64,000 nucleotides of DNA from Dehalococcoidia bacterium (GCA_965248865.1 CBDFKP010000002.1:213573-277572); one strand, 5' to 3'; counted from the first letter of the stretch, positions 25,719 through 58,820 are shown. Notes: a model not told the origin generated them from the sequence alone. Translations and numbers: made by a program.

Positions 25719-25952
25719 ATGAAAGAGTCAGCAGGTCCAGAGAAGGGCGGTCGGCGAGCGGGGCCGACCGGGAGAATGCGAAGCTGGGTGGTATCCTTGG
25801 CATGGGCCGCGGCCATTGTGGGCGTGGCGGTGGCCGTTAGCGCGGTGATAAACCCGGCGCTGGGGCGGAGTGTCCACTGGGACTGGATGGCCGGCCTGGC
25901 GTCGACGCTGTTCGCTGCGCTCTCCATCGCGCTTCGCCGTCGGTGGGTGTAG
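25719..25952 (+). CDS. Small hypothetical two-TM membrane protein
   Basis: 77-aa ORF with two hydrophobic segments. No motif recognised. Confidence 0.3.
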   Translation: MKESAGPEKGGRRAGPTGRMRSWVVSLAWAAAIVGVAVAVSAVINPALGRSVHWDWMAGLASTLFAALSIALRRRWV

Positions 25953-26016
25953 AGGGGTATCTGTGAAACCGGGCAATACGGCCCATATGAAAAGTACCGA
26001 GGAGGGTTTCTCTAAT

Positions 26017-36500: not shown

Positions 36501-36571
36501 TCTGTGAAGAGCAGGCGGCATCCGTTGGAAACTCGTATGGTCCTTGTATGGTCATAGAGGGAGGAACTGAT

Positions 36572-37642
36572 ATGGCGACGGTTATAGACAACCATGTCCA
36601 CCTCATATCCGGAACGCCCGGCAATGAGTATATGTCGCCCAACTACCGTTGGTACCACTGCTACAACTGGGCCTACGGTGGTGCACACAGGCCTCCCTAC
36701 GAGCGCGACCCCATGGATATGTACCCCCGCCAGGAGCAGCGGGTGGCGGACCCGGACGGCTCGGCCACGGTGAAGGCGATGGATGCCGCCGGTGTGGACG
36801 CCTGCGTGCTGATCCACGCCGACTTCGGTCACGGCTTTGGGGAGCTGGGGGCCAAGAGCATGGAGGAGATGCACCAGGACTACACGGACATCGCCAACCG
36901 GTACCCGGGCCGCTTCTATCCCTTCGCGGGGCCGGATGTCCGTCGTCCGGGGTCGCTGGAGATGGTCCGCAAGGGGCTGGCGGACGGTCGATTCAAGGGG
37001 CAGAAGGTGTTTCCGGAGGTGGGGTACTTCGCCAACGACCCGATGCTGTACCCCTTCTATAGCGCCCTGCTGGAGGCGGAAGCGCCGGTGGCTATCTGCA
37101 CCAACTTCGAGTCGCCCATGGCTCGCGGTCGGTACAATGACCCCATCTATATTACGGATGTGGTGGCGGACTTCCCTGACCTGAACGTCATCATCTTCCA
37201 CTGCGGCTACCCGTACCAGCACTGGTTTGAGATCTGCCTGGCCATTGCTCGGGCGGCCCTCAACGTGCACGTGACCGTGGAGCCGTGGCTGTGGGGATAC
37301 AGCGAGGCCGGTCCGGGGCGCGAGGAGGAGGGCATTCGGAAGCTGGCGAGGATCAGAGACTCCATCGGTGCCCACCGCATCCACTTCGGTACCGATGGCC
37401 AGTTCGCCAACACCAACTGGGGCGAGGGGTGTACGCAGACCTACATCAACCATGTCAACATTTGGAGAGAGCTGCCGGAACGGGCCAAGCGGTACGGGAT
37501 CACCTTCAGCCAGGAGGAGGTGGACCTGATGATGGGGCTGAACCTGGGCCGGCTGCTGGGTGTGGTGGATATGCCGGAGTACACCAAGAAGCGCAAGTAC
37601 GGCTGGAGTATCCTGATGCCGCGGCCCATGCCAACGCCGTAG
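36572..37642 (+). CDS. Amidohydrolase-2 paralog 2 of 6
   Basis: Start MATVIDNHVHL after GAGGGAGG. IIFHCG, FGTDGQ. Same tail. Confidence 0.85.
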   Translation: MATVIDNHVHLISGTPGNEYMSPNYRWYHCYNWAYGGAHRPPYERDPMDMYPRQEQRVADPDGSATVKAMDAAGVDACVLIHADFGHGFGELGAKSMEEMHQDYTDIANRYPGRFYPFAGPDVRRPGSLEMVRKGLADGRFKGQKVFPEVGYFANDPMLYPFYSALLEAEAPVAICTNFESPMARGRYNDPIYITDVVADFPDLNVIIFHCGYPYQHWFEICLAIARAALNVHVTVEPWLWGYSEAGPGREEEGIRKLARIRDSIGAHRIHFGTDGQFANTNWGEGCTQTYINHVNIWRELPERAKRYGITFSQEEVDLMMGLNLGRLLGVVDMPEYTKKRKYGWSILMPRPMPTP

Positions 37643-37704
37643 TCTGTGAAGAGGCGGCGTCCGTTGGAAATTCGTACGGTTTCAGATAGAGGGAGGGAAC
37701 TGAT

Positions 37705-38775
37705 ATGGCGATGGTCATAGACAACCATGTCCACCTTATATCCGGTACACCCGGCAATGAGTACCTGCCGCCCAAGTACCGATGGTGGACCTGCTACAAC
37801 TGGGCTTATGCCCACCCTCATATGCCCCCGTATGACAGAGACCCTATGGATATATACGAACGCCAGGAGCAGCGGGTGGCGGACCCGGATGGGTCGGCAA
37901 CGGTGAAGGCGATGGACGCCGCCGGTGTGGATGCCTGCGTGCTGATCCACGCCGACTTCGGCCTTTGCTACGGCGAGATAGGGCCAAAGAGCATGGAGGA
38001 GATGCACCAGGACTACACGGACATCGCCAAGCGGTACCCGGGCCGCTTCTATCCCTTCGCCGGGCCGGATGTCCGTCGTCCGGGGTCGCTGGAAATGGTG
38101 CGCAAGGGTCTACAGGACGATTCCTTCAAAGGGCAGAAGATATTTCCTGAGGTGGGCTACTTTGTCAACGATCCGATGCTGTACCCCTTCTACAGCGCCA
38201 ATTTGGAGGCCGAGAGGCCCGTTGCCATCTGCACCAACTTCGAGCCGCCCATGGCCCGGCCCAGGATGAACGATCCCATCTATATCACGGATGTAGTGGC
38301 TGACTTCCCTGACCTGAACGTTATTATTTTCCACGCCGGCTATCCCCTTGACCACTGGTTTGAGATTACCCTGGCCATCGCCAGAGCCGCCCTCAACGTC
38401 TACATAACGGTGGAGCCGTGGCTGTGGGGGTACCCGGGATGGGAAAAGGGTGGGGAAGAGGACGGCATCAGGAGACTGGCGAGGATCAGGGACTCCATTG
38501 GTGCCCACCGCATCAGCTTCGGGACCGATGGTCAGTTCGCGAACACCAACTGGGGCGAGAGGAGCATCGAGAACTACAAGGAGCATGTCAATATCTGGAA
38601 AGAGCTGCCGGAGCGAGCGAAGAGGTACGGGATCTCCTTCAGCCAGGAGGAGGTGGACCTGATGATGGGGATGAACCTGGGCCGGCTGGTTGGTGCCGTG
38701 GATATGCCGGAGTACAAGAAGAAGCGCAAGTACGGGTGGAGCATCTTGATGCCGAGGCCCATGCCGACGCCGTAA
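37705..38775 (+). CDS. Amidohydrolase-2 paralog 3 of 6
   Basis: MAMVIDNHVHL, IIFHAG, FGTDGQ. Tail VDMPEYKKKRKYGWSILMPRPMPTP. Confidence 0.85.
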   Translation: MAMVIDNHVHLISGTPGNEYLPPKYRWWTCYNWAYAHPHMPPYDRDPMDIYERQEQRVADPDGSATVKAMDAAGVDACVLIHADFGLCYGEIGPKSMEEMHQDYTDIAKRYPGRFYPFAGPDVRRPGSLEMVRKGLQDDSFKGQKIFPEVGYFVNDPMLYPFYSANLEAERPVAICTNFEPPMARPRMNDPIYITDVVADFPDLNVIIFHAGYPLDHWFEITLAIARAALNVYITVEPWLWGYPGWEKGGEEDGIRRLARIRDSIGAHRISFGTDGQFANTNWGERSIENYKEHVNIWKELPERAKRYGISFSQEEVDLMMGMNLGRLVGAVDMPEYKKKRKYGWSILMPRPMPTP

Positions 38776-38817
38776 GAGGCACCGAGGTTGGTGCGAGCAC
38801 AGAAGGAGGGAGCTGGA

Positions 38818-39876
38818 ATGGCACAGATCATAGATAACCACGTTCACCTGCTTTCCGGGAGACCGGGCAAAGAGTACGAGCCGCCCATCTACAGGTGGCG
38901 ACAGTCCTACAGTTGGGCCTACGGTGGTGCACACAAGCCTCCCTACGAGCGTGACCCCATGGACCTGTACCCGCGGCAGGAAGAGCGGGTGTCCGACCCG
39001 GACGGCACGGCCACCATCGCCGCCATGGACAAGGCGGGCGTGGACTCCGCGGTGCTGATCCATGCCGATTTCGGCCCCAGCCACGGCGGTGGCGAGGGTA
39101 TGACCATGGAGGAGATGGCAAAGAGCTACGCGGACCTCCAGAAGAAGTACCCGGGTCGGTTTTACGCCTTTGCCGGGCCGGACGTTCGGCGCCCCGGCTC
39201 CCTGCAACTAGTGGAGAAGGCCTTTACCGAATGGGATACTAAGGGGCTGAAGGTGTTTCCAGAGTTGGGCTATTTTGTCAACGACCCGATGCTCTACCCC
39301 TTCTACAGCCTGTGCTTAGAGGCTGAGAAGCCCATTGCCATCTGCACCAACTTCGAGTCTCCCTTTGCGCGAGGACGGTACAACGACCCCCTCTATATCA
39401 CGGACGTGGTGGCGGACTTCCCCGACCTGGACGTGATCATCTTCCACTGCGGCAACCCGTTTGAGCACTGGTTTGAGATCACCCTGGCCATTGGGGGCGC
39501 GGCGTTGAACACCTACCTGGAGTTCGATGCGTGGATCCATCCAGGCCGGAGGTCGGAGGAGGAGATGGTGCGGCGGCTGGCCAAGACGCGTGACAGGGTA
39601 GGGGCCCACCGCATCACCTTCGGGACGGACTTCCAGTGCTCGCCGAGCAACTGGGGAGACCGCCGGGCTGATGATTACGTTCGGCACGTAGATTTCTGGA
39701 AGGAGCTGCCGAAGACGGCGCTGAAGTATGGTGTGAACTTCAGCCAGGAGGAGGTGGACCTGATGATGGGGCTGAACCTGGGCCGGCTGCTGGGTGTGGT
39801 GGATATGCCGGAGTACACCAAGAAGCGTAAGTATGGCTGGAGCATCCTGATGCCGCGGCCCATGCCCACGCCGTGA
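38818..39876 (+). CDS. Amidohydrolase-2 paralog 4 of 6
   Basis: Start MAQIIDNHVHL after GGAGGGAG. The 3' half is near-identical to paralog 1. Confidence 0.85.
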   Translation: MAQIIDNHVHLLSGRPGKEYEPPIYRWRQSYSWAYGGAHKPPYERDPMDLYPRQEERVSDPDGTATIAAMDKAGVDSAVLIHADFGPSHGGGEGMTMEEMAKSYADLQKKYPGRFYAFAGPDVRRPGSLQLVEKAFTEWDTKGLKVFPELGYFVNDPMLYPFYSLCLEAEKPIAICTNFESPFARGRYNDPLYITDVVADFPDLDVIIFHCGNPFEHWFEITLAIGGAALNTYLEFDAWIHPGRRSEEEMVRRLAKTRDRVGAHRITFGTDFQCSPSNWGDRRADDYVRHVDFWKELPKTALKYGVNFSQEEVDLMMGLNLGRLLGVVDMPEYTKKRKYGWSILMPRPMPTP

Positions 39877-40041
39877 GCCACGGCCAAGAGGAGAGCGGTA
39901 GGAAGGTTGTGGTGTTTCCCGCTGGGCAGACCCCTGCCTACACCTCAAAGCCGCTTGTGGTACTATAGCGGGCGGCTGCCGGAGCACTGGCGGATGCGCC
40001 CAATGCTCGACGCCAATGCGTAGATTGTGGAAGGAGTGACT

Positions 40042-41187
40042 ATGGCTAATAAGAAAGCTCTTGTTATCGGTGGGACAGGCCCCACGGGCCCGTTCGTTGT
40101 GGAGGGGCTGGTGGAGCGTGGTTACGATGTGACCATTCTGCACCGAGGTTTCCATGAGGTGGAGTTCAAGTACCCGGTGGAGCATATCCACGGGGAGCCG
40201 CACTTCGCCGAGGAGTTCCGGGAGGCCTTGGGGGATAATAGCTACGATGTCATCGTTGCCATGTACGGGCGACTGCGGGTTGTGGCCGATGCGTGCGTCG
40301 GTAAGACGGAGCGGTTCATTGCGGTGGGCGCCGGCGCTCCCCAGGACCAGCTACTCTCCATCTATGATTTGGGGATGAGAAGGTCGGGCGAGTCACTGGA
40401 GGGCACCGGCTCCATCCAGAAGCGCGTCAGCCAGGCCCGGGAGGAGGTTATGGAGTACCACCGGTCGGGCAAGTACGTCATGACCTACATCGGGTACCCC
40501 AGCGTGTATGGGCCGCGGCAGCCGGGTCCCCTGGAGTGGAGCATTCTTCGCAGGGTCCTGGACGGACGCAGGAAGTTTATGGTCCTGGATGGCGGCCTTC
40601 ACATGCGGCACTTCCCCTATGTGGAGAACTGCGCCCAGCCCGTGCTCCTGTCGGTGGACAGGCCCAAGGAGTCCGGGGGGAATTTCTACGGCGCCGCGGA
40701 GGAGGCGATGATCACGGACCGGTTCCGGCTTCAGACCATCGCCGATATCATGGAGGTGGAGATTGAGATGTACAGCTTCCCCCATGATATGGGGGTGCCG
40801 GGATGGTGGTGGGGCAACGGCGATTTCACCTTTGCGCAGGAGGGTCGGGCTCCCCGCATGGCGCACAACAACGTAGGCGTGGAGAAGCTCAAGCGGGAAC
40901 TGGGCTATAAAGACGTGGTGGACCCCGTTGAGGCCCATAGACGTAGCGTGGAGTGGCTGCTGGCCAACAAGCCGGTGCCCGGCGGTGAAGATGAGCAGAT
41001 CCTGGGTGACCCGTTCGATTACGCGGCTGAAGACGCCTATTTCGAAGCCCACGATAAGTTTGCTGAGGCGCTGGACAGGATTCCCTTTGGCGGGTACTCC
41101 ACCGTACACCGCTACCAGCATCCCAAGGAGCCGTGGCAGAAGGGTGTCACCGCACATGTCGATCGGAGCAAGACAGCGAGAGGTTAA
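40042..41187 (+). CDS. NAD(P)-dependent epimerase/dehydratase-type (extended SDR) protein embedded in the amidohydrolase array
   Basis: MANKKALVIGGTGPTGPFVVEGL (Rossmann GxxGxxG). About 380 aa. Confidence 0.75.
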   Translation: MANKKALVIGGTGPTGPFVVEGLVERGYDVTILHRGFHEVEFKYPVEHIHGEPHFAEEFREALGDNSYDVIVAMYGRLRVVADACVGKTERFIAVGAGAPQDQLLSIYDLGMRRSGESLEGTGSIQKRVSQAREEVMEYHRSGKYVMTYIGYPSVYGPRQPGPLEWSILRRVLDGRRKFMVLDGGLHMRHFPYVENCAQPVLLSVDRPKESGGNFYGAAEEAMITDRFRLQTIADIMEVEIEMYSFPHDMGVPGWWWGNGDFTFAQEGRAPRMAHNNVGVEKLKRELGYKDVVDPVEAHRRSVEWLLANKPVPGGEDEQILGDPFDYAAEDAYFEAHDKFAEALDRIPFGGYSTVHRYQHPKEPWQKGVTAHVDRSKTARG

Positions 41188-41200
41188 AGGAGCGAACGCT

Positions 41201-42274
41201 ATGGCGATGATCATCGACAACCACATTCATCTGCTCTCAGGACACGACGGCAAGACCTATATGCCCCCGAACTACCGTTGGGCCATAGCTGTGAACTGGG
41301 CCTACGGGACTCGCCAGGAAGTCCCGTACACCCGTGATCCCGCGGACTTTTACCCCCGGCAAGAGGAACGGGTATCCGACCCGGACGGCACGGCGACGAT
41401 TGAGGGCATGGATGCCGCCGGAGTGGATGCGGGGGTGCTGATCCATGCCGATTTCGGTCCCAGCCACGGCGGCGGGGAGACGATGACCATGGAGGAGATG
41501 GCCAAGAGCTACACCGATCTCCAGAACAAGTATCCGGGCAGGCTGTATGCCTTTGCGGCACCGGACGTTCGGCGCGCCGGTTCGCTTCAACTGGTGGAGA
41601 AGACCTTCCGGGACTGGGACACCAAGGGGTTCAAAGTGTTCCCGGAGGTGGGCTACTTTGTCAACGACCCGATGCTCTACCCCTTCTACCAGAAGTGCCT
41701 GGAGTACAACAAGCCGGTGGCCATCTGCACCAATTTCGAGCGCCCCTTTGCCCGGGCCCGGTTCAACGATCCCATCTACATCACGGACGTGGTGGCCGAC
41801 TTCCCGGACATGAATCTGATCATGTTCCACGTGGGTTCGCCCATGGAGCACTGGTACGACATCTGCATGGCCATAGGCCGGTCCGCCCTGAACACCTACG
41901 CTGAGGTGGACTCGTTCATGCTGGGCTTCAACGGAGCCCCCCAGTCCATCAGCGACGAGGACTCCATCAAACGGCTGGGGCAAATCCGGGACACGTTTGG
42001 CGCGCACCGCGTGATCTTTGGCTCAGATGTCCAGTTCGCGCACAGCAGCTTCGGCGAAAGGAACAAGCAGAACTACATCAAGCGGGTGCAGTTCTGGAAG
42101 GAGTTGCCCAAGAACGCTCCCAAGTACGGCGTCAACTTCAGCCAGGAGGAGGTGGACCTGATGATGGGCCTCAACCTGGCACGGCTGATGGGTCTGGTGG
42201 ATATGCCGGAGTACGAGAAGAAGCGGAAGTATGGCTGGAGCATCCTGATGCCGAGGCCCATGCCGACGCCGTAG
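41201..42274 (+). CDS. Amidohydrolase-2 paralog 5 of 6
   Basis: Start MAMIIDNHIHL at 41201; the track ORF from 40928 overlaps the SDR and is rejected. IMFHVG, FGSDVQ. Same tail. Confidence 0.85.
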   Translation: MAMIIDNHIHLLSGHDGKTYMPPNYRWAIAVNWAYGTRQEVPYTRDPADFYPRQEERVSDPDGTATIEGMDAAGVDAGVLIHADFGPSHGGGETMTMEEMAKSYTDLQNKYPGRLYAFAAPDVRRAGSLQLVEKTFRDWDTKGFKVFPEVGYFVNDPMLYPFYQKCLEYNKPVAICTNFERPFARARFNDPIYITDVVADFPDMNLIMFHVGSPMEHWYDICMAIGRSALNTYAEVDSFMLGFNGAPQSISDEDSIKRLGQIRDTFGAHRVIFGSDVQFAHSSFGERNKQNYIKRVQFWKELPKNAPKYGVNFSQEEVDLMMGLNLARLMGLVDMPEYEKKRKYGWSILMPRPMPTP

Positions 42275-42370
42275 TCTGTGAAGAGCAGGCTGCATACGTT
42301 GAAGCATTCCTATGCCCCGTTCCGGGCCGACTACGTTGGCTGACGCACGAGGCGAACGCAAGGGGAGGGT

Positions 42371-43447
42371 ATGGCGCAAGTAATTGATGCCCACGTGCAT
42401 CTCTTGACGGGGTCCCGCGGCAACGAGTATCTGCCGCCCAAGCTTCGGTGGGCAATGTGTATGGGCTGGGCCTATACGCGACAGCCTCCATGGGACCGTG
42501 ATCCCGTGGACTTCTATCCCCGGCAGGAGGAGCGCGTCTCCGACCCGGACGGATCGGCTACCGTGGCTGCACTGAGTGAGGCCGGCGTGGATGGGGCCGT
42601 GCTGATTCCGGCGGACTTCGGTGAGGCATACGGGGAGCTCCAGGCGAAGAGCATGGAGGAGATGCACTCTGACTACGCGGAGCTACAGAAAAAGTACCCC
42701 GGCAAGCTGTATGCCTTCGCGGGGCCGGACATCCGTCGCGCCGGCTCCCTGCAGCTTGTGGAGAGGAGCTTTCGTGATTGGGGGCTCAAGGGGCTGAAGG
42801 TTATGCCGCACCTGGGATACTTCGTCTCAGACCCGGCGCTCTATCCCTTCTACAAGATGTGCCTGGACTACCAGCGTCCGGTGGCCCTGTGCACCAACTT
42901 TGAGCCCGCCTTCAATCCCTTCTCCCGCGGCAGGATGAACGATCCGATCTACGTTTCCGACGTGGTGGCGGACTTCCCGGACCTGGATGTCATCATCTTC
43001 CATGCCGGCTACCCCTTTGAGCACTGGTTTGAGATCAGTCTGGCCATTGGGCGTGCTGCGCTGAACACCTACATGGAAATAGATGCGTGGATGCTGGGCT
43101 TCAGCCACTGGCCGGAGTCCATCGGCGAGGAGGATTCGATACGCCGGCTGGCCTGGGTGCGGGATGTCATGGGCGCCCACCGCATCATATACGGCTCGGA
43201 TGCTCAGTTCGCGGCCAGCAGCTTCGGCGAGGCGAACAAGGAGCGGTACATCAAGCGGGTGCAGCTCTGGAAGGAGCTGCCGGAGCGGGCGAAAAGGTAC
43301 GGAATCAGCTTCAGCCAGGAGGAGGTGGACCTGATGATGGGTCTCAACCTGGCACGGCTGATGGGCCTGGTGGATATGCCGGAGTACACCAAGAAGCGCA
43401 AGTATGGTTGGACTATCCTGATGCCAAGGCCCATGCCGACACCCTAG
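42371..43447 (+). CDS. Amidohydrolase-2 paralog 6 of 6
   Basis: MAQVIDAHVHL, IIFHAG, YGSDAQ. Tail VDMPEYTKKRKYGWTILMPRPMPTP. Confidence 0.85.
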   Translation: MAQVIDAHVHLLTGSRGNEYLPPKLRWAMCMGWAYTRQPPWDRDPVDFYPRQEERVSDPDGSATVAALSEAGVDGAVLIPADFGEAYGELQAKSMEEMHSDYAELQKKYPGKLYAFAGPDIRRAGSLQLVERSFRDWGLKGLKVMPHLGYFVSDPALYPFYKMCLDYQRPVALCTNFEPAFNPFSRGRMNDPIYVSDVVADFPDLDVIIFHAGYPFEHWFEISLAIGRAALNTYMEIDAWMLGFSHWPESIGEEDSIRRLAWVRDVMGAHRIIYGSDAQFAASSFGEANKERYIKRVQLWKELPERAKRYGISFSQEEVDLMMGLNLARLMGLVDMPEYTKKRKYGWTILMPRPMPTP

Positions 43448-43531
43448 GGTAGCAAACTGCCCGGCCCGCATTGAGCTGGAGCCGAAGGCGGCGCTGGTTA
43501 TGCCGGCACAACCGATGTGAGAGAGGGCACC

Positions 43532-44842
43532 ATGGCAACATCCAAGACCAGTGCTGGGGCCTCAGCGAAGGGTATGCTTGCGCCCTACCGGGTCCTGGAC
43601 CTCACCGAGAGCGGGTGCATGTACGGTGGTAGACTTCTGGCCGACCTGGGGGCGGATGTGATCAGGATAGAGCGGCCTGGTGGCTCCCCCAGCAGAAGCA
43701 TCGGCCCCTTCTGGCACGACCAGGTCCACCCTGAGCGGAGCCTCTTCTGGTGGGCCTACAACGTCAATAAGCGTAGCATCACCCTGGACCTGGAATCCGA
43801 GGACGGGGCCGCGATATTCAAGGGGCTGGCTCAGACGGCCGATTTCGTCCTGGAGTCGAACGCGCCGGGGTACATGGATGGGCTGGGATTGGGCTACGAC
43901 GACCTGAGCAGCATTAACCCGGGGATCATCGTCTGCTCCATCACACCATTCGGACAGACGGGCCCCAAGGCCCACAACGCCTGGAGCGACCTATCAGTGT
44001 GGGCTAGTGGTGGGCCGGCCTATCTGACGGGGCACCCGGACCGCCAGCCCATTGGGATCAGCTTCATGTACCAGGCTACGCTGCACGGCGGCGCTGAGGC
44101 GGCGCCGGCCTGCATGATCGCCCTCCACCACCGTGAGCGGACGGGTGAGGGGCAGTTCATAGACGTCTCCATCCAGGAGTGTGCCTACTGGGTACTCACC
44201 TCCTGGCAGGAGTTCTGGGATACCGCGGGAACCATCCCCAGGCGTCAGGCGGGGTTCTCCGGCGTGGGGCGAGGACATACGCCTATGGCGGCGGGGGCGA
44301 CTCGGGAGCGGCGGCAGCTCTATTCCGCGAAGGACGGGTTCATTATGTACACGGTCCAGGGAGGCGTCTGGGGTGGAGCCCAGTCCAGCAGCGCGGTGGT
44401 TGAGTGGATGAAGGAGGAGGGGATGGCTCCCGATTGGCTGCTGGAGTTCGACTGGGTCCGTGGGTTTGACCTTTCGACTATGGGAGGGGATACCCTGGAT
44501 GCGCTGGAGGAGTGCTTTATACAGTTCTTCCTGACCAAGACCAAGCTGGAGATTACGGAGCGGAGCGTCCAGGGCCACTTCATGGTTGGTCCGGTGAATA
44601 CTCTGGAGGATGTGGGGACGTATCCACACCTACAGGCCAGGGAGTTCTTCCAGGAGCTGTGGCACGAAGAGCTGGGGGCCAACGTCACCTACTGTGGCCC
44701 TGCCGTTAAGGCATCAGAGACGCCGCTGAGTATCCGACGCCGTGCGCCGCTCATCGGTGAGCATAACGACGAGGTGTACCGCCAGGAGCTTGGGATGGCT
44801 GGGGAGGAGCTGGTGGCACTCAGATACGCCGGCGTCATCTAG
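43532..44842 (+). CDS. Family III CoA-transferase, alpha-type (Asp-less), pair 1
   Basis: YRVLDLTESGCMYGGRLLADLGADVIRIERPGG. Nucleophile region reads ISFMYQATLHGGAEAAPACMIALHHRERTGEGQFIDV, with no Asp. Confidence 0.85.
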   Translation: MATSKTSAGASAKGMLAPYRVLDLTESGCMYGGRLLADLGADVIRIERPGGSPSRSIGPFWHDQVHPERSLFWWAYNVNKRSITLDLESEDGAAIFKGLAQTADFVLESNAPGYMDGLGLGYDDLSSINPGIIVCSITPFGQTGPKAHNAWSDLSVWASGGPAYLTGHPDRQPIGISFMYQATLHGGAEAAPACMIALHHRERTGEGQFIDVSIQECAYWVLTSWQEFWDTAGTIPRRQAGFSGVGRGHTPMAAGATRERRQLYSAKDGFIMYTVQGGVWGGAQSSSAVVEWMKEEGMAPDWLLEFDWVRGFDLSTMGGDTLDALEECFIQFFLTKTKLEITERSVQGHFMVGPVNTLEDVGTYPHLQAREFFQELWHEELGANVTYCGPAVKASETPLSIRRRAPLIGEHNDEVYRQELGMAGEELVALRYAGVI

Positions 44843-44871
44843 ACACCGGGGCCGTAGTCCAGGAGGGAGCG

Positions 44872-46113
44872 ATGTCAGAGACGCCGCGGGCACTTGAGGG
44901 AATAAAGGTCGTGGTCATCGGCGCTGCGGTGACCGCCCCGACCACGGGACGCTACCTGGCGATGCACGGAGCCACGGTGGTGCGGGTGGACAGCCACACC
45001 CGCATGGACGGGCTGCGGACTCAGCGACCCTTCCCGCCCGACGAGGCGCCCACCGCCGATACCGGCGTTTGGTGGGCCAACGTCAACTCCAGCACCCAGT
45101 GCGTGGCGGTGGACTGGAAGGTGCCCACCGGCAAGGGCATTATCGATAAACTGCTCCGTTGGGCCGATGTGGTGATCGAGAACTTCTCAGCCGGGACTCT
45201 GACGGCTATGGGGTTCGGGTACAAGACGGTATCCAAAGACAACCCGGGCGTTATCTACCTGAGCTCTTGCCTCATGGGGCAGACGGGGCCGTTGTCCGGC
45301 GTGGTAGGTCTGGGGACGGCGGGTATGGCCTTCGGCGGATTCGTCCACATGACCGGCTGGCCTGACCTGGAGCCGACACCGATCATGACCCAGTACACCG
45401 ACTTCATCAATCCCAGGATGGGCGCAGCGGTTATCCTGGCCGCCCTGGACCACAGGAGACGGACGGGCAAGGGGCAATACCTTGACCAGGCCCAAGTGGA
45501 GGGTGGCCTCCAGTTCCTTGCTCCCCTGGCGATGGACTGGCTCAGCAACGGGCGCTCGGCCAACCGCTCCGGAAACACGATACCGGAGGCCGCTCCCCAT
45601 AACATCTACCCGTGCCAGGGCGAAGACCGGTGGTGCTTCATCGGCGCGTTCAATGATGAGGAGTGGGACGGCCTCTGCCGGGCCATGGGCCAGCCCTCTT
45701 GGACGAGGGACGACAAGTTCAACACGGTGGCGGGGAGAAAGGGGAATGAGGATGAGCTGGATGAGCTGATAGGCCGGTGGACCAGGGACAAGACCGCCGA
45801 GGAGGTAGAGGCGGCTCTTCAGGCGGAGGGTGTGCCCTCATCCGTGGTGGAGAACGCCAGGGACGCGCGGGAGGATGAGCAACTGGGCCACCGGGGGTTC
45901 TTCCGGCAGATAGAGCACAGCGTTATCGGCACGCACACCTATCGGGGGCCGTGCTTCCGGCTTTCGAAGACGCCGGACAACCAGTTTGCGGGCCCGACGC
46001 TGGGGCAGCACAACTTCGAGGTGTGCACCATGATTGGCATGGACGATGAGGAGATTGCCGAGGCCATTATCGAGGGAGGGCTGGGCACCGAGCCTGTTGC
46101 GGTTGAGACATAG
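44872..46113 (+). CDS. Family III CoA-transferase, beta-type (Asp-containing), pair 1
   Basis: LEGIKVVVIGAAVTAPTTGRYLAMHGATVVRVD. TQYTDFINPRMGAAVILAALDHRRRTGKGQYLD. Confidence 0.85.
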   Translation: MSETPRALEGIKVVVIGAAVTAPTTGRYLAMHGATVVRVDSHTRMDGLRTQRPFPPDEAPTADTGVWWANVNSSTQCVAVDWKVPTGKGIIDKLLRWADVVIENFSAGTLTAMGFGYKTVSKDNPGVIYLSSCLMGQTGPLSGVVGLGTAGMAFGGFVHMTGWPDLEPTPIMTQYTDFINPRMGAAVILAALDHRRRTGKGQYLDQAQVEGGLQFLAPLAMDWLSNGRSANRSGNTIPEAAPHNIYPCQGEDRWCFIGAFNDEEWDGLCRAMGQPSWTRDDKFNTVAGRKGNEDELDELIGRWTRDKTAEEVEAALQAEGVPSSVVENARDAREDEQLGHRGFFRQIEHSVIGTHTYRGPCFRLSKTPDNQFAGPTLGQHNFEVCTMIGMDDEEIAEAIIEGGLGTEPVAVET

Positions 46114-46164
46114 CCCCATCGAGTATATCCACAGCTCCTCCCGTTCCATCCTGATTGAGGGAAG

Positions 46165-47496
46165 GTGATGGCGGTAGCCGATACAGTGAGCCCCGTTCCA
46201 GCCGAAGGTATGCTTACGCCGTTCCGGGCCTTGGACCTCACCGAGGGCGGGTGCGCTGTGGGCGGCAAGACGCTGGGAGACCTGGGAGCGGACGTCATCC
46301 AGATTGAGCCGCCCGGAGGGTCTTCCTCCCGCGGGATCGGCCCCTTCCTGCACGGCGACGTCCATCCGGAGAAGAGCCTCTTCTGGATGGCGTATAACTG
46401 CAACAAAAGAGGCATTACCCTGGAGATCGCCACGGCAGATGGTGCTGCGATCTTTCGCAGGCTGGTTGAGACCGCGGATTTCGTTCTGGAGTCGTATCCC
46501 CCCGGATACATGGATGGGCTGGGATTGGGCTACGGCGCGCTAAGCCAGACCAACCCGCGGCTTATCGTCGCCTCCATAACGCCGTTTGGGCAGAGCGGCC
46601 CCAAGGCCCACAACGCCTGGAGCGACCTGACGGTCTGGGCCAGCGGTGGAACGGTGTTTCTGACGGGAGACCAGGAGCATCCGCCCCTGGGGGTGAGCTT
46701 CATGCATCAGGCGACCCTGAACGGTGGAGCCGAGGCCGCAGCCGCCTGTATGATCGCCCATCACTACCGGCAGAGGAGTGGGCTGGGACAGCATATAGAC
46801 CTCTCCATGCAGGCGGTGGCCTATGGGGTCAACACCTCCACCATGGAGTTCTGGGAGACGGAGGGTGCGATACCCCAGCGATCCGACCACGGCAACGCAC
46901 CCGGCGGTGCAACCGCGCCGCCCCAGGCAGGGGGAAGTTCCGGGGGGCGGCCCGGTGTGCGCGGGAGGCAGCGGTTTTACGGTAAGGACGGCATCATCCT
47001 CTGGTCGGTGAATGCCGGCCCCAGGGGCGCTGGGAGGTCCAGCGCGCCGGTGGTCGACTGGATGCGGGAGGAGGGAGCCGCTCCTGACTGGCTGTCGGAG
47101 CACGACTGGGATGGCGGGTTCGACCTGACGGCGTTGCCGGAGGAGCGGTTCCGTGCAATGGAAGAGGCCTTTGCCGACTTCATCGGAAGCAAGACCGGGC
47201 GGGAGATCATGGAACGGGGCATCTCCCACGACTTCGTGGTGGGCGTGGTGAACAGCCCCAAGGACATCGGCACCCATCCACAGTTGCAGGCGCGGGATTT
47301 CTTTCACCGGGTTGCGAATGAGGGCCTGGGTGAGGAGGTGGTCCACTGCGGGCCACCCGTCAAGGCTTCAGAGACTCCCCTGGCCCTGAGGCGGCCGGCA
47401 CCCCGGATTGGAGAGCATAACGCAGAGGTGTACGGCGATGAGTTGGGACTGACCACCGAGAATCTGGTGGCGCTCATGTACGCCGGCGTAATCTAA
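46165..47496 (+). CDS. Family III CoA-transferase, alpha-type (Asp-less), pair 2
   Basis: FRALDLTEGGCAVGGKTLGDLGADVIQIEPPGG. VSFMHQATLNGGAEAAAACMIAHHYRQRSGLGQHIDL. Confidence 0.85.
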   Translation: MMAVADTVSPVPAEGMLTPFRALDLTEGGCAVGGKTLGDLGADVIQIEPPGGSSSRGIGPFLHGDVHPEKSLFWMAYNCNKRGITLEIATADGAAIFRRLVETADFVLESYPPGYMDGLGLGYGALSQTNPRLIVASITPFGQSGPKAHNAWSDLTVWASGGTVFLTGDQEHPPLGVSFMHQATLNGGAEAAAACMIAHHYRQRSGLGQHIDLSMQAVAYGVNTSTMEFWETEGAIPQRSDHGNAPGGATAPPQAGGSSGGRPGVRGRQRFYGKDGIILWSVNAGPRGAGRSSAPVVDWMREEGAAPDWLSEHDWDGGFDLTALPEERFRAMEEAFADFIGSKTGREIMERGISHDFVVGVVNSPKDIGTHPQLQARDFFHRVANEGLGEEVVHCGPPVKASETPLALRRPAPRIGEHNAEVYGDELGLTTENLVALMYAGVI

Positions 47497-47502
47497 ATAA
47501 CA

Positions 47503-48798
47503 GTGAGTAGTGAAAAAGCAGTGGCAGAGAAGCAGGCGTTGAAGGGAGTCAAGGTCGTCATCATAGGTGGCGTGGTCACCGCGCCCACCATGGGTCGCTA
47601 CCTTGCCCTGCACGGAGCCACGGTGGTGCGGGTGGACGGCCACACCCGTATGGACAGCATGCGCTACCAGCGACCCATTCCCCCTGAGATGGTGGGAGAC
47701 CCCAACGGCGGTGTCTGGTGGGCCAGCATCAACTCCAGTGCCCTGTGCATAGGCCTGGACCTGACCAAGCCCACGGGCAAGGCAATCGTGAACCGGCTGG
47801 TGCGCTGGACCGACGTGGTGGTGGAAAACTTCTCCGCCGGCACCCTGGCCAAATGGGGCGTGGACTACCACACCGTGGCCAGGGAGCGACCGGAGGTGAT
47901 CTACCTGAGCTCCTGCCTCTTCGGTCAGACCGGGCCCTGGTCCCGCGTGTCCGGATACGGGACGGCCGGAGCGGCCATGGCGGGGTACGACTTTATCACC
48001 GGGTGGCCGGACCAGGAGCCGACGCCGCTCCTTACCCAGTACACCGACTACATCAACCCGAAGTTTGGCGTGGCCACCATCCTGGCTGCCCTGGAGTACC
48101 GGGACCGGACGGGCCGCGGGCAGTACCTGGACCAGGCCCAGGTAGAGGGTGGTCTCCAGCTCATCGCCCCCGTTCACATGGACTGGCTCAACAACGGCCA
48201 CACCATGGAGCGTTCCGGCAACAGGGTGACATGGGCGGCGCCCCATGGGACGTTCCCTTGCCAGGGAGACGACCGATGGTGCGCCATCGCCGTAACCAAC
48301 GACCAGCAGTGGCAGGGGTTCTGCCGTGCCCTGGAGGAGTGTGCGTGGCCCCGGGAGGAGCGGTTCGCGACGCTGCTGGGGCGGAAACGCCACGAGGAGG
48401 AGCTGGAGGAGTTGCTGGGGCAGTGGACCGGCGAGCGGTCTGCGGAAGAGGCGGAGGCCGGTCTGCAGCGTGAGGGCGTCCCAGCCTCCGTGGTGGAGAA
48501 CACGAAGGACACCTATGAGGACCCACAGCTGCGACATCGCGGTTTTTTCCGCAAGATCCGCCACGCCTTTATCGGCGAACATAGCTACCGGGGGCCATCC
48601 TTTATACTTGGACGGACGCCGGATAGCCAGTCCGCGGGCCCAGCCCTTGGCGAACACAGCATTCAGGTGTGTAGAATGGTGGGCATGACGGATGATGAGA
48701 TAACGGAGGCTCTTCAGGAGGGCGGACTGGGTGCGGTGCCCGCAAACCTGGCCCCAGCACCGGAGTCCGGTAGCACGGCTATGGATACGTCACCATAG
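47503..48798 (+). CDS. Family III CoA-transferase, beta-type, pair 2
   Basis: GTG start 6 nt after the pair-2 alpha stop. TQYTDYINPKFGVATILAALEYRDRTGRGQYLD. Confidence 0.85.
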   Translation: MSSEKAVAEKQALKGVKVVIIGGVVTAPTMGRYLALHGATVVRVDGHTRMDSMRYQRPIPPEMVGDPNGGVWWASINSSALCIGLDLTKPTGKAIVNRLVRWTDVVVENFSAGTLAKWGVDYHTVARERPEVIYLSSCLFGQTGPWSRVSGYGTAGAAMAGYDFITGWPDQEPTPLLTQYTDYINPKFGVATILAALEYRDRTGRGQYLDQAQVEGGLQLIAPVHMDWLNNGHTMERSGNRVTWAAPHGTFPCQGDDRWCAIAVTNDQQWQGFCRALEECAWPREERFATLLGRKRHEEELEELLGQWTGERSAEEAEAGLQREGVPASVVENTKDTYEDPQLRHRGFFRKIRHAFIGEHSYRGPSFILGRTPDSQSAGPALGEHSIQVCRMVGMTDDEITEALQEGGLGAVPANLAPAPESGSTAMDTSP

Positions 48799-48844
48799 AG
48801 ATCAGCGTCCTGATCAACCCGGGGAGCATTGCAAGAGGAGAGAG

Positions 48845-50137
48845 ATGTCGACAGCACAGAGCGATACATCGGCAACGGCGGAGGGGATGCTTTCTCCATT
48901 CCGTGTCCTGGACCTCACGGAGGGTGGATGTCTCCTGGGGGGGAAGGTGCTGGGCGAGCTTGGGGCTGACGTTATCAAGATAGAGCCACCGGGCGGCTCA
49001 CCCACCCGCCGGACCGGCCCATTCTGGCATAATCAGGTCCATCCAGAGTACAGCCTTTTCTGGTGGGCCTACAACGTCAACAAGAGGAGCATCACTCTCA
49101 ACATAGAGGCCTCGGATGGAGCCGAGATATTCAAGAGCCTGGTGGGGACCGCTGACTTCGTTTTGGAGTCGTTCCCGCCGGGGTACATGGGTGGCATAGG
49201 ACTTGGCTACGAGGTACTGAGTAAAATAAACCCTCGGGTGATCATGGCGTCGATAACCCCTTTTGGCCCCACAGGGCCCAAGGCGAACAACGCGTGGTGC
49301 GACCTGACCATCTGGTCCAGCGGAGGGCCGGTCTATATGACGGGAGACCCCGATACTACGCCCGTAGCCATAAGCTACATGCACCAGGCCACACTCAATG
49401 CAGGTGCGGAGGCGGCGGCTGCGTCCATGATGGCGCACTACCACCGGGAGAACACAGGCCAGGGGCAGCTCATAGACGTCTCCATGCAGGAGGTCGCCTA
49501 CTGGATCATGACCTCCTGGCAGGAGTTTTGGGAGACCGAGGGTACCATACCGAAGCGTTTCGGCGGGCCACCCAGAGCCGCCGAGGAGGCCCATCTCCGT
49601 GAGCGCCGCCAGATGTTCTCTGCGAAGGACGGGTACGTGGTCTTCTGGGTCCAGGGTGGCTGGGGGGGTGGAACTCACTCCACCGAGGCCGTGCTCAAGT
49701 GGATGGAGGAGGAGGGAGAGACCAATGAGTGGATTCTCAACTTCGACTGGGAGCATGACTACGACCTCTCCAAGATGACCAACGAGACCCTGGATGCGCT
49801 GGAGCAGCCCTTCGTGGACTTCTTTGCGACGAAGACCAAGGCGGAGATCTCCGAGCGGGCCATCCTGGACCACATCATGATCGGCGCCATCAACAACAGC
49901 GAGGACCTGGCAAACCACCCACAGCTACAGGCCCGGAGCTTCTTTGAGGAGGCGTGGCATGAGGAGCTGGGGGAGAAGGTGACCTACTGCGGCCCGGTTT
50001 TGAAGGCCTCTGAAGCACCCCTGACGCTCCGGAGGCGTCCGCCCTTGATAGGTGAGCACAATGAGGAGGTCTACCGGCAGGAGCTGGGGCTATCCGTGGA
50101 GGAGCTCACGGCACTGAGACATGCGGGTGTCATCTAA
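48845..50137 (+). CDS. Family III CoA-transferase, alpha-type (Asp-less), pair 3
   Basis: Start MSTAQSDTS. FRVLDLTEGGCLLGGKVLGELGADVIKIEPPGG. ISYMHQATLNAGAEAAAASMMAHYHRENTGQGQLIDV. Confidence 0.85.
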   Translation: MSTAQSDTSATAEGMLSPFRVLDLTEGGCLLGGKVLGELGADVIKIEPPGGSPTRRTGPFWHNQVHPEYSLFWWAYNVNKRSITLNIEASDGAEIFKSLVGTADFVLESFPPGYMGGIGLGYEVLSKINPRVIMASITPFGPTGPKANNAWCDLTIWSSGGPVYMTGDPDTTPVAISYMHQATLNAGAEAAAASMMAHYHRENTGQGQLIDVSMQEVAYWIMTSWQEFWETEGTIPKRFGGPPRAAEEAHLRERRQMFSAKDGYVVFWVQGGWGGGTHSTEAVLKWMEEEGETNEWILNFDWEHDYDLSKMTNETLDALEQPFVDFFATKTKAEISERAILDHIMIGAINNSEDLANHPQLQARSFFEEAWHEELGEKVTYCGPVLKASEAPLTLRRRPPLIGEHNEEVYRQELGLSVEELTALRHAGVI

Positions 50138-50193
50138 CCGCGTTCTTGACCGAGAGAATGCAAGCTTGAAACCAACGGGAAAGGAAGAGCGAG

Positions 50194-51423
50194 ATGGCTG
50201 ATACACCCAGGGCCCTGGAGGGATTGAAGGTCGTGGTGATCGGCGGCGTTGTGACCGCTCCGCTGACGGCACGATACCTGGCACTCCATGGAGCCACGGT
50301 CGTTCGAGTTGACAGCCACGTTCGTAGAGACGGCGTTCGGATGCAACGGCCCTTCTCCCCGGAGATGGTGGGCAATCACAGTGGAGGAGTCTGGTACGCC
50401 ACCATCAACAGCAGTGTCCAGGGCATAGCGGTGGACTGGTCCAAGCCGATGGCCATGGTCATTATGAACAAGCTGGTTCGCTGGGCGGACGTGGTGATCG
50501 AGAACTTCGGCGCCGGCACCCTGGAAAAATGGGGCATAGACTACTACACCATCTCCAAGGACAACCCCGGCGTCATCTATCTGAGCTCCTGCCTCATGGG
50601 CCAAACAGGCCCTTGGGCTCCGCTCACGGGGCTGGGGACTGCGGGAGGAGCGATAGCCGGCGTGTTTGACCTGTGCGGCTGGCCTGAGGGCGAGCCCACG
50701 CCCATCCAGACCCAGTACACCGATTTTGTAAACCCGAAGTTCGGCGTTGCCGCAATCATGGCTGCCCTGGAGTATCGCCGGCGCACAGGCCGGGGCCAGT
50801 ACCTGGACCAGGCCCAGGTGGAGGGCGGTATTCAGGTGATCGCCCCACTGGTGATGGACTGGATGAGCAACGGCCGTCTGGCGACTCGCACGGGAAACAA
50901 GATCGCCGAGGCGGCGCCCCACGGGGTGTTCCGGTGCGCCGGCGACGACAGGTGGGTTGCCATTGGGGTGTTCACTGATGACCAGTGGGTGGGGCTCCGC
51001 CGCGTGAAGGGCGTGCCGTCGGTGCTTGGGGAGGGCAAGTTCAAGACCATAGCAGGTCGGAAGGAGCGGGAGGAGGAGCTGGCCGCCCTGATAGAGGGGT
51101 GGACTATGCAGCATACCCCGGAGGAGGTGGAGGCGTGGCTCCAGGCCGAGCAGGTGCCCTCAGCCGTGGTGGCGAACTCCAAGGATACCAGGGAGGACGT
51201 TCAGCTAGACCACCGGGGGTTCTTCCGTAGGATAGAGCACACCGTTATTGGGGAGCATACCTACCGTGGGCCGGCCTTTCGGCTTACGAAGACGCCGGAC
51301 AACCAGTTTGAGGGACCTGCCATGGGTCAGCACAACTTCGAGGTGTGCGCCATGCTGGGCATGAGCGACGACGAGATCTCCGAGGCGATTGCCGAGGAGG
51401 CCCTGGGCTTTGAGCCTGTGTAG
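50194..51423 (+). CDS. Family III CoA-transferase, beta-type, pair 3
   Basis: LEGLKVVVIGGVVTAPLTARYLALHGATVVRVD. TQYTDFVNPKFGVAAIMAALEYRRRTGRGQYLD. Confidence 0.85.
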   Translation: MADTPRALEGLKVVVIGGVVTAPLTARYLALHGATVVRVDSHVRRDGVRMQRPFSPEMVGNHSGGVWYATINSSVQGIAVDWSKPMAMVIMNKLVRWADVVIENFGAGTLEKWGIDYYTISKDNPGVIYLSSCLMGQTGPWAPLTGLGTAGGAIAGVFDLCGWPEGEPTPIQTQYTDFVNPKFGVAAIMAALEYRRRTGRGQYLDQAQVEGGIQVIAPLVMDWMSNGRLATRTGNKIAEAAPHGVFRCAGDDRWVAIGVFTDDQWVGLRRVKGVPSVLGEGKFKTIAGRKEREEELAALIEGWTMQHTPEEVEAWLQAEQVPSAVVANSKDTREDVQLDHRGFFRRIEHTVIGEHTYRGPAFRLTKTPDNQFEGPAMGQHNFEVCAMLGMSDDEISEAIAEEALGFEPV

Positions 51424-57248: not shown

Positions 57249-58820
57249 TCAAGGCGGCGGAGCTAGACCCGCCAGCGCCTCCTCCAGGTCAGGCGGAAGG
57301 TCCGAAGTGAACTCGGCGTACTCTCCGCTAGAGGGCAGACGGAACCCCAGCCTTGTGGCGTGCAGGAATTGCCGCCGGAGGAAAGGCACCCCTCCGCCGT
57401 ACAGTCGGTCACCCGCCACGGGATGGCCGATGGAGGAGAGGTGGACGCGTATCTGGTGGGTCCGCCCGGTGTGTGGCGTAATCTCCAGGAGTGCGTAGGC
57501 GTCAAAGAGCCGCGTAATGTGGTACCGGGTGGTGGCCTGCCTGCCACCTTCGACCACGGCCATGCGCTTGCGATTCCGTGGGTCGCGTCCTATGGGCGCC
57601 TCGATAACTGCCTCGGATGGCTCCGGGTGGCCCAGGACCAGCGCCAGGTAGACCTTGGTCACGGCGCGCGCCTTGATCTGCCGGGAGAGGTCGTTGTAGG
57701 CGGCCTCTGTCCTGGCGACCACCATCAGCCCGGAGGTATCGGCGTCCAGGCGGTGGACGATTCCAGGACGCAGGCGTTCGCCAGCCTCCGCCAGGTCCGG
57801 GTAGGAAGCCAGGAGCGCGTTCACCAGAGTGCCGGAGGGGCGACCCGGCGCGGGGTGAACGGTCATTCCCGGCGGCTTCTCTATGACCAGCACGTCGTCG
57901 TCCCTGTAGCGAACGTCGATAGGCATCTCCTCCGGGCCCGGCCAGGTAGGTGGCGGTGGAGGCAGGCGCACCTCGATGTGATCGCCGGGGCGCAGTCCAA
58001 GGGAGGCCTTGGCGTCCATGCCGTTGACCAGGACGCTGCCCTCTCGGATAAGGCGCTGGGCCTGGGAGCGGGTGAGGTCCGACCGGACCCGGGGTATGTA
58101 GCTGTCCAGCCGCTCCTCCGCGGCTTCAGGCGTCGGGGGATAGTACACCAGGGATAGGAGCTTGTTTTCGGTGTCCAGAGGCGGCTTCTGGTCATCTTCA
58201 ATGCGCGGCAGGACGGCCGGGTCGTTAGTGGGAGGCCGCTTGGGGTTGGAGAGGAGCATCCACGCAAGAATGGCGATGCCTACCACGATGGCGGAGTCCG
58301 CCAGGTTGAAAACCGGCCACGCTCCTATATCGATGAAATCGGTGACGCCGCCCAGGGTGATGCGGTCCGCCAGGTTTCCCGCTGCGCCGCCTAGCTGAAG
58401 GCCCAGGCTGGTGCGAAGCCACATGCTCGGTAGGGGCTGGTGTCGGTAGAAGAGGATGAGGATGGCGATGCCCGCCAGGGATGCCACGGCAAGCAGGATG
58501 GCCTGGTTGGGGAAGAGGCCGAAGGCGCTACCGGTATTCGAGATGTGAGTGAGGCGGAAGAATCCCTCCGAGGGAATGGAGCCACCCATGATGATATTGT
58601 CCCGGACCAGCTCCTTGGAGACCTGGTCCAGCACGAAGGTGGCGATGAGGACGGCGACCAGGTAGATGTCGTGGACCCAGGGCTGTGGAGCGTCGTGTGC
58701 CTTGGGCTTGGACCGGGGGGTCTCGGGTAGCTCCATGGCAGGGGCTGGGGGCTGGTCCGTCTGAAGGCGCTCTTCTGTATCTAATGGCTGTGGGGAGCCC
58801 ACGGACACCTCGGAGTTCAA
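57249..58820 (-). CDS. Fusion protein: lipoprotein signal peptidase II (LspA) N-terminal domain + S4/RluA-family 23S rRNA pseudouridine synthase (RluD-like) C-terminal domain
   Basis: LspA part: LDQVSKELV..NTGSAFGLF..FNLADSAIVVG. RluD part: S4 (LIREGSVLVNG), HRLDADTSGLMVVA, GRTHQIRVH. Confidence 0.8.
   Translation of the reverse strand: MNSEVSVGSPQPLDTEERLQTDQPPAPAMELPETPRSKPKAHDAPQPWVHDIYLVAVLIATFVLDQVSKELVRDNIIMGGSIPSEGFFRLTHISNTGSAFGLFPNQAILLAVASLAGIAILILFYRHQPLPSMWLRTSLGLQLGGAAGNLADRITLGGVTDFIDIGAWPVFNLADSAIVVGIAILAWMLLSNPKRPPTNDPAVLPRIEDDQKPPLDTENKLLSLVYYPPTPEAAEERLDSYIPRVRSDLTRSQAQRLIREGSVLVNGMDAKASLGLRPGDHIEVRLPPPPPTWPGPEEMPIDVRYRDDDVLVIEKPPGMTVHPAPGRPSGTLVNALLASYPDLAEAGERLRPGIVHRLDADTSGLMVVARTEAAYNDLSRQIKARAVTKVYLALVLGHPEPSEAVIEAPIGRDPRNRKRMAVVEGGRQATTRYHITRLFDAYALLEITPHTGRTHQIRVHLSSIGHPVAGDRLYGGGVPFLRRQFLHATRLGFRLPSSGEYAEFTSDLPPDLEEALAGLAPPP

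Follow-up and report, generated by a model that had tools for sequence, protein, structure and literature searches.

Family III coenzyme A (CoA)-transferases follow a standard cycle in which an Asp residue passes through an anhydride and then through a thioester (PMC9813914). The described members Frc, YfdW, SUGCT, CaiB, and Mct are homodimeric, with two identical subunits that are both catalytic. BbsEF, the succinyl-CoA:(R)-benzylsuccinate CoA-transferase (Protein Data Bank [PDB] entries 9fn0, 9fol, and 9fun), is built from two paralogous family III subunits encoded by genes lying side by side, and the covalent Asp is carried by the F-type chain only. SptAB is a further family III transferase whose name denotes the products of two genes (PMC11659651). 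An analogy from a different family is offered by BbsCD, a heterotetrameric dehydrogenase that belongs to the short-chain dehydrogenases/reductases (SDRs), which contains inactive pseudoenzyme subunits according to the title of its description and thus also combines an active subunit with an inactive paralog. Here, we analyze six CoA-transferase genes, A1, B1, A2, B2, A3, and B3, located at positions 43532 to 51423 of a 64,000-nucleotide stretch of DNA from a Dehalococcoidia bacterium (GCA_965248865.1, CBDFKP010000002.1:213573-277572), which we refer to as the window. According to our analysis, their products probably form three cognate CoA-transferases of family III, each composed of two subunits in the manner of BbsEF, in each of which the beta subunit would be catalytic and the alpha subunit would be its obligatory partner.

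Two subunit types and their relation to BbsEF

All six open reading frames (ORFs) described in the initial annotation of the window are present on the plus strand (Table 1), with 6 to 56 nucleotides (nt) between neighbors. Mechanical ORF calling places the starts of A1 and A3 further upstream, at 43517 and 48731, respectively; judged by the alignments with homologs, the ATG starts of the initial annotation appear to fit better. Each of the six proteins matches the CoA_transf_3 profile PF02515 over nearly the whole model (E values from 1e-66 to 1e-93), with scores of 225 to 312 bits against a cut-off of 23.3, while none of them reaches an NCBIfam equivalog cut-off. Exact-sequence look-ups of B1, P0012, and P0016 returned no match. 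The strict alternation of two subtypes, as first proposed, is borne out by pairwise identities of 58 to 64% among the alpha proteins and 60 to 66% among the beta proteins, compared to only 26 to 32% between alpha and beta. The motifs by which the subtypes had been told apart, M[YH]QATL[HN][GA]G in alpha and TQYTD[FY][IV]NP in beta, are likewise found. The GTG start of B2 lies 6 nt past the A2 stop codon and in frame with it (TAA, ATA ACA, GTG; 47494 to 47505), so that only one stop codon stands between A2-B2 and a fusion of alpha to beta such as single ORFs encode in other genomes.

Among solved structures, the best match of A1 is chain A of BbsEF (9fn0_A; E value of 1.6e-56, versus 7.6e-20 for chain B), and the best match of B1 is chain B (9fn0_B; 1.5e-62, versus 5.6e-25 for chain A), the cross-matches to the opposite chain being about 35 orders of magnitude weaker. 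A Foldseek search with the AlphaFold2 (AF2) model of A1 returned 9fn0_A, 9fol_A, and 9fol_C as the top neighbors (E values of ~3e-34), with the F-type chains of BbsEF ranking 26th to 32nd. All 50 of the 50 listed hits are family III structures, with template modeling scores of 0.62 to 0.80, as is expected for proteins sharing the fold of the family, in which a Rossmann-like large domain is combined with a small domain. The JGI annotation makes the same division; it names homologs of alpha "BbsE subunit" and those of beta "BbsF subunit."

The entry 9fol carries the PDB title "BbsEF, D178-CoA adduct." Counting along the phmmer alignment, D178 falls in the TNYTD motif of chain B, which is aligned to TQYTD of B1. 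In chain A, Ala is found as residue 178, and the column aligned to the Asp is occupied by Tyr171. The solved enzyme thus contains one catalytic and one Asp-less subunit, where the Asp-less status of the E-type subunit rests on the PDB titles and on the alignment made here. The same pattern is seen in the window, which has the Asp in its beta (F-type) subunits only and encodes the two paralogous subunit types by adjacent genes, with gaps of 6 to 56 nt within the pairs.

The window pairs also differ from BbsEF in several respects. The alpha proteins are 35 to 39% identical to BbsE, and the beta proteins are 31 to 34% identical to BbsF; there are three diverged tandem pairs in the window and one pair in BbsEF. 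The Asp column is occupied by Thr in the window alphas and by Tyr in BbsE, and the window betas are missing the Lys of the NxNKR motif, which BbsF keeps. The genomic context consists of amidohydrolase genes and an SDR-like gene instead of bbs or bss genes, since no member of the bbs beta-oxidation families and no glycyl-radical benzylsuccinate synthase was detected among the approximately 40 flanking window genes scanned. Because of the identities of 31 to 39% and of this missing bbs/bss context, the window pairs are deemed not to be functional orthologs of BbsEF. Their substrate is almost certainly not benzylsuccinate.

Table 1. Coordinates of the CoA-transferase array and of other features in the window
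Feature	Position	Strand	Length	Family match	Remarks
A1, alpha (BbsE-type)	43532-44842	+	436 aa	PF02515, E 7e-72	Thr183 at nucleophile position (codon 44078-44080); Ser109 replaces "ENF" Asn
B1, beta (BbsF-type), predicted catalytic	44872-46113	+	413 aa	PF02515, E 6e-93	Asp177 (codon 45400-45402); Asn104
A2, alpha	46165-47496	+	443 aa	PF02515	Thr184 (codon 46714-46716); Ser110
B2, beta	47503-48798	+	431 aa	PF02515	Asp182 (codon 48046-48048)
A3, alpha	48845-50137	+	430 aa	PF02515	Thr183 (codon 49391-49393); Ser109
B3, beta	50194-51423	+	409 aa	PF02515	Asp177 (codon 50722-50724)
NxNKR region of B1	45070-45090 (approximate)
NxNKR region of B2	47716-47736 (approximate)
NxNKR region of B3	50392-50412 (approximate)
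Ordinary family III homolog	2011-3204				Keeps Asp (AILIAD)
581-aa protein	33297-35042	-	581 aa	Family I CoA_trans, weak CitF-like C-terminal region	Divergent, upstream of the gene string; conserved in L085
AH1, Amidohydro_2	35448-36500	+		PF04909, E 1e-19 to 1e-22 (AH1 to AH4)
AH2, Amidohydro_2	36548-37642	+		PF04909, E as for AH1
AH3, Amidohydro_2	37705-38775	+		PF04909, E as for AH1
AH4, Amidohydro_2	38788-39876	+		PF04909, E as for AH1
SDR-like protein	40027-41187	+	386 aa	Weak PF01370, E 9e-9	PDB matches weak
AH5, Amidohydro_2	~41201-42274	+		PF04909
AH6, Amidohydro_2	42371-43447	+		PF04909	Directly upstream of A1
Transposase	23013-24344	-		DDE_Tnp_1_4
Two Meth_synt_2 genes	4591-6716	-	~325-330 aa each	Meth_synt_2
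Radical SAM protein and methyltransferase ORF	25870-28232
Apparent LspA-RluD fusion	57249-58820	-	523 aa	Peptidase_A8, S4, RluD-like

Active-site residues of the alpha and beta subunits

Four approaches were used to locate the nucleophile Asp, namely, phmmer alignment with solved enzymes, MAFFT alignment, profile-profile alignment with hhalign, and a comparison of the helix register between AF2 models. By three of these four, phmmer, hhalign, and the helix register, the Thr of the alpha motif QATL is placed at the Asp position. In the phmmer alignments, the nucleophile Asp of 4ed9 and of Brucella Frc stands opposite this Thr, and the Asp of the beta motif TQYTD stands opposite TNYTD of 9fn0_B. 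The hhalign comparison of 70 alpha-type with 39 ordinary family III sequences brings T183 of A1 opposite the Asp of human SUGCT, and the alpha consensus shows no acidic residue at this column. In the twelve-sequence MAFFT alignment and with hmmalign, it is the Ala beside the Thr which takes the Asp column, and the Thr becomes an insert. An acidic residue at or adjoining the Asp position of A1 to A3 was placed there by no method.

The AF2 monomer models of A1 and B1 are moderate, with a predicted local distance difference test (pLDDT) score of ~70, and were used only for the helix register. In both of them, the Asp column lies at the N terminus of a long helix (residues 182 to 204 in A1; residues 179 to 198 in B1, with D177 directly before it), and exactly 22 residues of uninterrupted helix separate it from the TGxGQ motif, which is invariant, an equal spacing which leaves no room for an insertion or deletion. 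This location agrees with that of the Mct Asp, which is described as belonging to the last Rossmann helix (PMC9813914). The catalytic Asp of the family is thus kept by B1 to B3 and absent, with no other acidic residue in its place, from A1 to A3, in agreement with what had been read from the sequence initially. The reading of the homolog at 2011 to 3204 as an ordinary family III enzyme that keeps the Asp also holds. According to these comparisons, the alpha proteins belong to family III by descent and fold but, lacking the Asp, would not be catalytically competent.

The missing Asp is not special to the three alpha proteins of the window, contrary to the emphasis of the initial annotation, and is instead a family-wide trait of BbsE-type subunits which includes the solved chain. 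In our curated sets, all 34 beta-type and all 39 ordinary family III sequences have the nucleophile Asp, compared to 0 of 70 alpha-type sequences. In the 120 best homologs of alpha, this column is occupied by Ser, Gly, Thr, Tyr, or Ala, never by Asp, and by Glu in four cases; the Gln at position -2 is conserved in 116 and the Glu at position +6 in 98 of them. Asp or Glu at this column was met in a few distant alpha-like ORFs (loci L030, L058, L034, L035, and L011). Since the loss extends to the whole family and to the solved BbsE, the find corresponds to the known BbsEF architecture and to nothing beyond it.

Two further positions separate the subunit types. The "ENF" Asn, which corresponds to Asn100 of Mct and contacts CoA (PMC9813914), is absent from all 70 alpha-type sequences (Ser in 58), while it is found in 23 of 34 beta-type and 36 of 39 ordinary sequences and is present in B1 to B3. 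The Asp of the GYD motif shows another distribution, being kept in 66 of 70 alpha-type and 39 of 39 ordinary sequences and in none of the 34 beta-type sequences, where 33 have Gly. We take this column to be that of Glu140 of Frc (own numbering). With the GYD Asp missing in beta and both the Asp and the Asn missing in alpha, both subunit types appear to be remodelled. A "reciprocal complementation" of the two sets of losses was considered and set aside: the losses are real according to the column counts, and complementation is not claimed. Compared to the homodimeric enzymes Frc, YfdW, SUGCT, CaiB, and Mct, the window proteins share the Pfam family and the fold, and the beta subunits share the Asp and the "ENF" Asn; the differences are the alpha product, which is without both residues, and the GYD Asp, universal in the ordinary members of our set and missing throughout the beta-type.

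Subunit pairing, history of the triplet, and alternative explanations

We called and classified ORFs at 80 loci from species-representative genomes, where relatives of the window proteins reach at most 44% identity among the matches listed; the close relatives, at loci L081, L083, L085, and L086, were obtained through metagenome proteins. Among the matches listed for the 80 loci, 33 of 38 unfused alpha-type ORFs have a beta neighbor on the same strand, with alpha first in 26 cases and beta first in 7, and two of the five unpaired alpha ORFs are located at contig ends. The same matches include at least 12 two-domain family III ORFs of ~800 to 900 aa. Ten of the 12 listed are clearly alpha-then-beta and one, at L021, is beta-then-alpha; in the two-domain ORF at L007 (2926 to 5442), the N-terminal half matches alpha weakly. 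The contigs carrying fusions are labeled as Dehalococcoidia, SAR202, other Chloroflexota, Actinomycetota (including "Ca. Poriferisodalis"), Myxococcales, and Pseudomonadota, and the alpha-beta junction is also spanned by several truncated metagenome proteins. Several pairs per cluster occur at L007, L011, L028, and L035 as well.

Corresponding subunits of the close relatives share 67 to 85% identity. L085 belongs to a nearly identical, independent assembly of low coverage and has the same gene order as the window. L086, with proteins that recur unchanged in SAR202 cluster bacterium Io17-Chloro-G3, has the same amidohydrolase and epimerase-like genes upstream, followed by four pairs. The order at L081 is two amidohydrolases, the SDR-like gene, two amidohydrolases, alpha, beta, and beta, the two betas being 92% identical, and L083 holds the SDR-like gene and one pair only, adjoining a transposase and conjugation-type genes. 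The view that a multi-pair series behind amidohydrolases is unique to the window is therefore to be abandoned, given the four pairs of the SAR202-type L086; in other relatives, an alpha is accompanied by two betas, or there is just one pair. In a neighbor-joining tree, window pairs 1, 2, and 3 group with L086 pairs 1, 2, and 3, for alpha and beta alike, and the alpha and beta trees are congruent. Window and L086 orthologs are 72 to 75% identical for alpha and 77 to 85% for beta; these similar values indicate that alpha is under purifying selection like beta and is not decaying. According to the trees, the triplet is old and the pair was duplicated as a unit.

The separate matches to the two BbsEF chains, the adjacency and fusion of the genes, and the congruent trees all support the initial proposal of duplicated and diversified heteromers, in which a catalytic beta subunit is joined by an alpha subunit without the Asp. 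Adjacency, fusions, and tree congruence also lend indirect support to a putative alpha2beta2 assembly of the window pairs.

Several observations weigh against this proposal. The low identity to BbsE and BbsF means that details of the solved enzyme need not transfer, and the two copies of each chain in 9fn0 fit alpha-beta dimers or an alpha-alpha plus a beta-beta dimer alike. In both AF2 models, the loop leading up to the Asp column is poorly predicted, its pLDDT lying below 50, which is the weakest point of the structural check. The alpha subunits retain the N-terminal Rossmann and NxNKR motifs together with the Glu at +6 in 98 of 120 homologs, and CoA binding or a separate function may persist in these subunits. 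The Lys of NxNKR, absent from B1 to B3, occurs in 27 of 34 other betas, in 68 of 70 alphas, and in 38 of 39 ordinary family members; the NxNKR[SG] region of the window betas is also without the Arg, reading NSSTQC in B1, NSSALC in B2, and NSSVQG in B3. A scan for promoters and terminators gave counts equal to chance and thus no signal behind the operon call. Finally, PDB and NCBIfam searches with the amidohydrolases and the SDR-like protein gave weak matches or none and no close characterized relative, which makes any proposal of a substrate weak.

The ambiguity of 9fn0 leads to the first alternative, where the alpha2beta2 assembly consists of an alpha-alpha and a beta-beta dimer, the latter with two full active sites and the former acting as a scaffold or as a regulatory or binding module outside the catalytic pocket. 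Such an arrangement would agree with the interlocked homodimers normally formed by family III enzymes (PMC9813914), and the single alpha with two betas at L081 implies that stoichiometry and pairing are not strictly one to one. However, the short-linker fusions in both orders and the tight alpha-beta co-phylogeny point to an intimate one-to-one contact, and alpha is highly conserved across its whole fold. We regard this arrangement as rather unlikely.

According to a second alternative, which we consider improbable, the alpha proteins are independent enzymes with another chemistry, that is, acyl-CoA isomerases, racemases, or lyases, or enzymes in which another residue, for example the conserved Glu, serves as nucleophile. 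Racemases are found within family III, and these (alpha-methylacyl-CoA racemases, MCR) use an acid/base Asp equivalent to the transferase nucleophile. A racemase-like alpha was rejected, as the needed Asp is absent and the MCR structures are distant matches (E values of ~1e-18). As regards lyases, DddD-type enzymes were suggested for SAR202 paralogs in the part of the account considered here (PMC5395668). The strong conservation of the Gln at -2 (116 of 120), the Glu at +6, the GYD Asp (66 of 70), and the motifs of the CoA-binding type would also suit an enzyme with its own activity. On the other hand, none of the 70 alpha-type sequences retains either the Asp or the pantetheine-binding Asn, the Glu at +6 lies nearly two helical turns from the Asp column in the AF2 model, and a near-obligatory adjacency and fusion with beta would not be expected for an independent enzyme. 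The idea of a recent amplification or assembly artifact with decaying alpha copies, to which the tandem, similar genes and the DDE transposase of the window might point, is hardly credible and was discarded, since the paralogs are just 58 to 66% identical, all six are full length relative to the Pfam model, the gene order recurs in the independent assembly of L085, and each pair has an ortholog at L086. The cognate heteromeric transferases thus remain the reading that we prefer.

Gene context, proposed function, and significance

The six CoA-transferase genes close a string of 13 co-directional genes (35448 to 51423; gaps of 6 to 150 nt) which begins with four amidohydrolase genes spaced by 12 to 62 nt. 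The six Amidohydro_2 paralogs of the string are 62 to 85% identical to one another. Their closest pairs are AH1-AH4 (85%) and AH2-AH3 (84%), which is an odd pattern and not the one expected if a block of two genes had simply been duplicated in tandem. Amidohydro_2 genes precede the pairs at L081, L085, and L086, with only four such genes at L081 and L086, and the SDR-like protein accompanies the pairs at L081, L083, L085, and L086. Neither was found beside the pairs at the 80 representative loci, among the matches listed, and the association is confined to the sub-lineage of the window. The pair of L083 forms a minimal three-gene set with an SDR-like protein of ~385 aa (8790 to 9959) near transposase, T4SS-pilin, and TraG-like genes, which hints that the cassette moves. 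At L086, a luciferase-like oxidoreductase gene lies between pairs 3 and 4 (12562 to 13518), and the four-pair array is followed by genes for an SDR, an FAA-hydrolase-family protein, a class II aldolase, and a thiolase (16176 to 21220); these genes may encode further steps of the same pathway.

Downstream of the array, on the opposite strand, the window encodes an F420-type luciferase-like oxidoreductase and two further amidohydrolases. A transposase of the same Pfam family as that of the window is found directly upstream of the related cluster at L081 (1936 to 3672) and at L082. The remaining genes of the window include the housekeeping genes Suf, GltX, QueG, and MgsA. Three other observations concern genes away from the array. 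The 523-aa ORF combines a Peptidase_A8 signal peptidase II with an S4 domain and an RluD-like pseudouridine synthase; the radical SAM protein has an HMPTM-type N-terminal zinc ribbon and is followed by an overlapping class I SAM methyltransferase ORF; and two short, adjacent Meth_synt_2 genes, which resemble cobalamin-independent methionine synthase, take the place of one long MetE.

For the three cognate transferases, we propose the following scheme. The Asp of the beta subunit (D177, D182, or D177) would attack the donor acyl-CoA, giving an acyl-aspartyl anhydride and then an aspartyl-CoA thioester, from which the CoA would be handed to the carboxylate of the acceptor. The alpha subunit, having Thr in place of the nucleophile and Ser in place of the pantetheine-contacting Asn, is predicted to be unable to run the chemistry of the family at a site of its own. 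It would be kept as an obligatory structural partner which probably shapes the substrate pocket. The pair would have been duplicated as a unit long ago, and the three pairs would have diverged, most likely toward three carboxylic-acid substrates. A set of related acids might be supplied by the amidohydrolases, acting as lactone- or ring-hydrolysing or as decarboxylating enzymes, whose activation for further oxidation would then fall to the transferases, which would need no ATP and would probably draw on succinyl-CoA. Such a hydrolyse-then-activate module is plausible, while the substrate class is weakly suggested by the gene context. What the analysis shows is the family, the subtypes, the residue losses, the synteny, the fusions, and the co-phylogeny. 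For the window organism itself, physical pairing, the part played by alpha, the donor of CoA, and the substrates are predictions from sequence and gene order.

The scheme would be in line with the multi-paralog catabolism typical of SAR202-type Chloroflexota, and the closest named homologs of the window pairs are indeed from SAR202-cluster and other Chloroflexota genomes. The Amidohydro_2 family corresponds to COG3618. In the portions of the SAR202 literature considered here, an expansion of COG3618 paralogs is placed in lactone catabolism (PMC10444878), and an expansion of CaiB/BaiF paralogs is interpreted as a means of activating diverse acids without ATP (Landry et al. 2017, PMC5395668). 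That account, as far as the portion considered goes, differs from ours in treating the paralogs as individual enzymes, with the pair structure and the amidohydrolase operon unmentioned. The architecture itself is known, being widespread, structurally documented, and already annotated automatically, and it brings no new kind of enzyme or mechanism. The modest new element is the pair structure of the SAR202 paralog expansion together with the conserved operon, neither of which is described in those parts of the SAR202 papers.

A broader and more speculative proposal, which we put forward tentatively and hold to be doubtful, is that much of the "CaiB/BaiF paralog expansion" of the SAR202 type consists of catalytic/non-catalytic pairs, with the Asp-less alphas as exchangeable pseudoenzymes that set specificity, one of them serving two betas at L081, and that the pairs and the arrays of lactonase-like amidohydrolases form one conserved operon which would open and CoA-activate related ring compounds of refractory dissolved organic matter. 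Independently of this, about half of the CoA-transferase genes of the BbsEF type, in Chloroflexota and several other phyla, would be unable to be catalytic by the mechanism of the family. Counting the alpha proteins as separate enzymes would therefore overstate the metabolic breadth of these organisms and hide the pair as the functional unit. The conserved operon, with its four to six amidohydrolases, the SDR-like gene, and one to four pairs, is a compact testable system for finding out on what the SAR202-type paralog expansions act, for which the natural alpha-beta fusions and the single stop codon between A2 and B2 would provide ready-made expression constructs.

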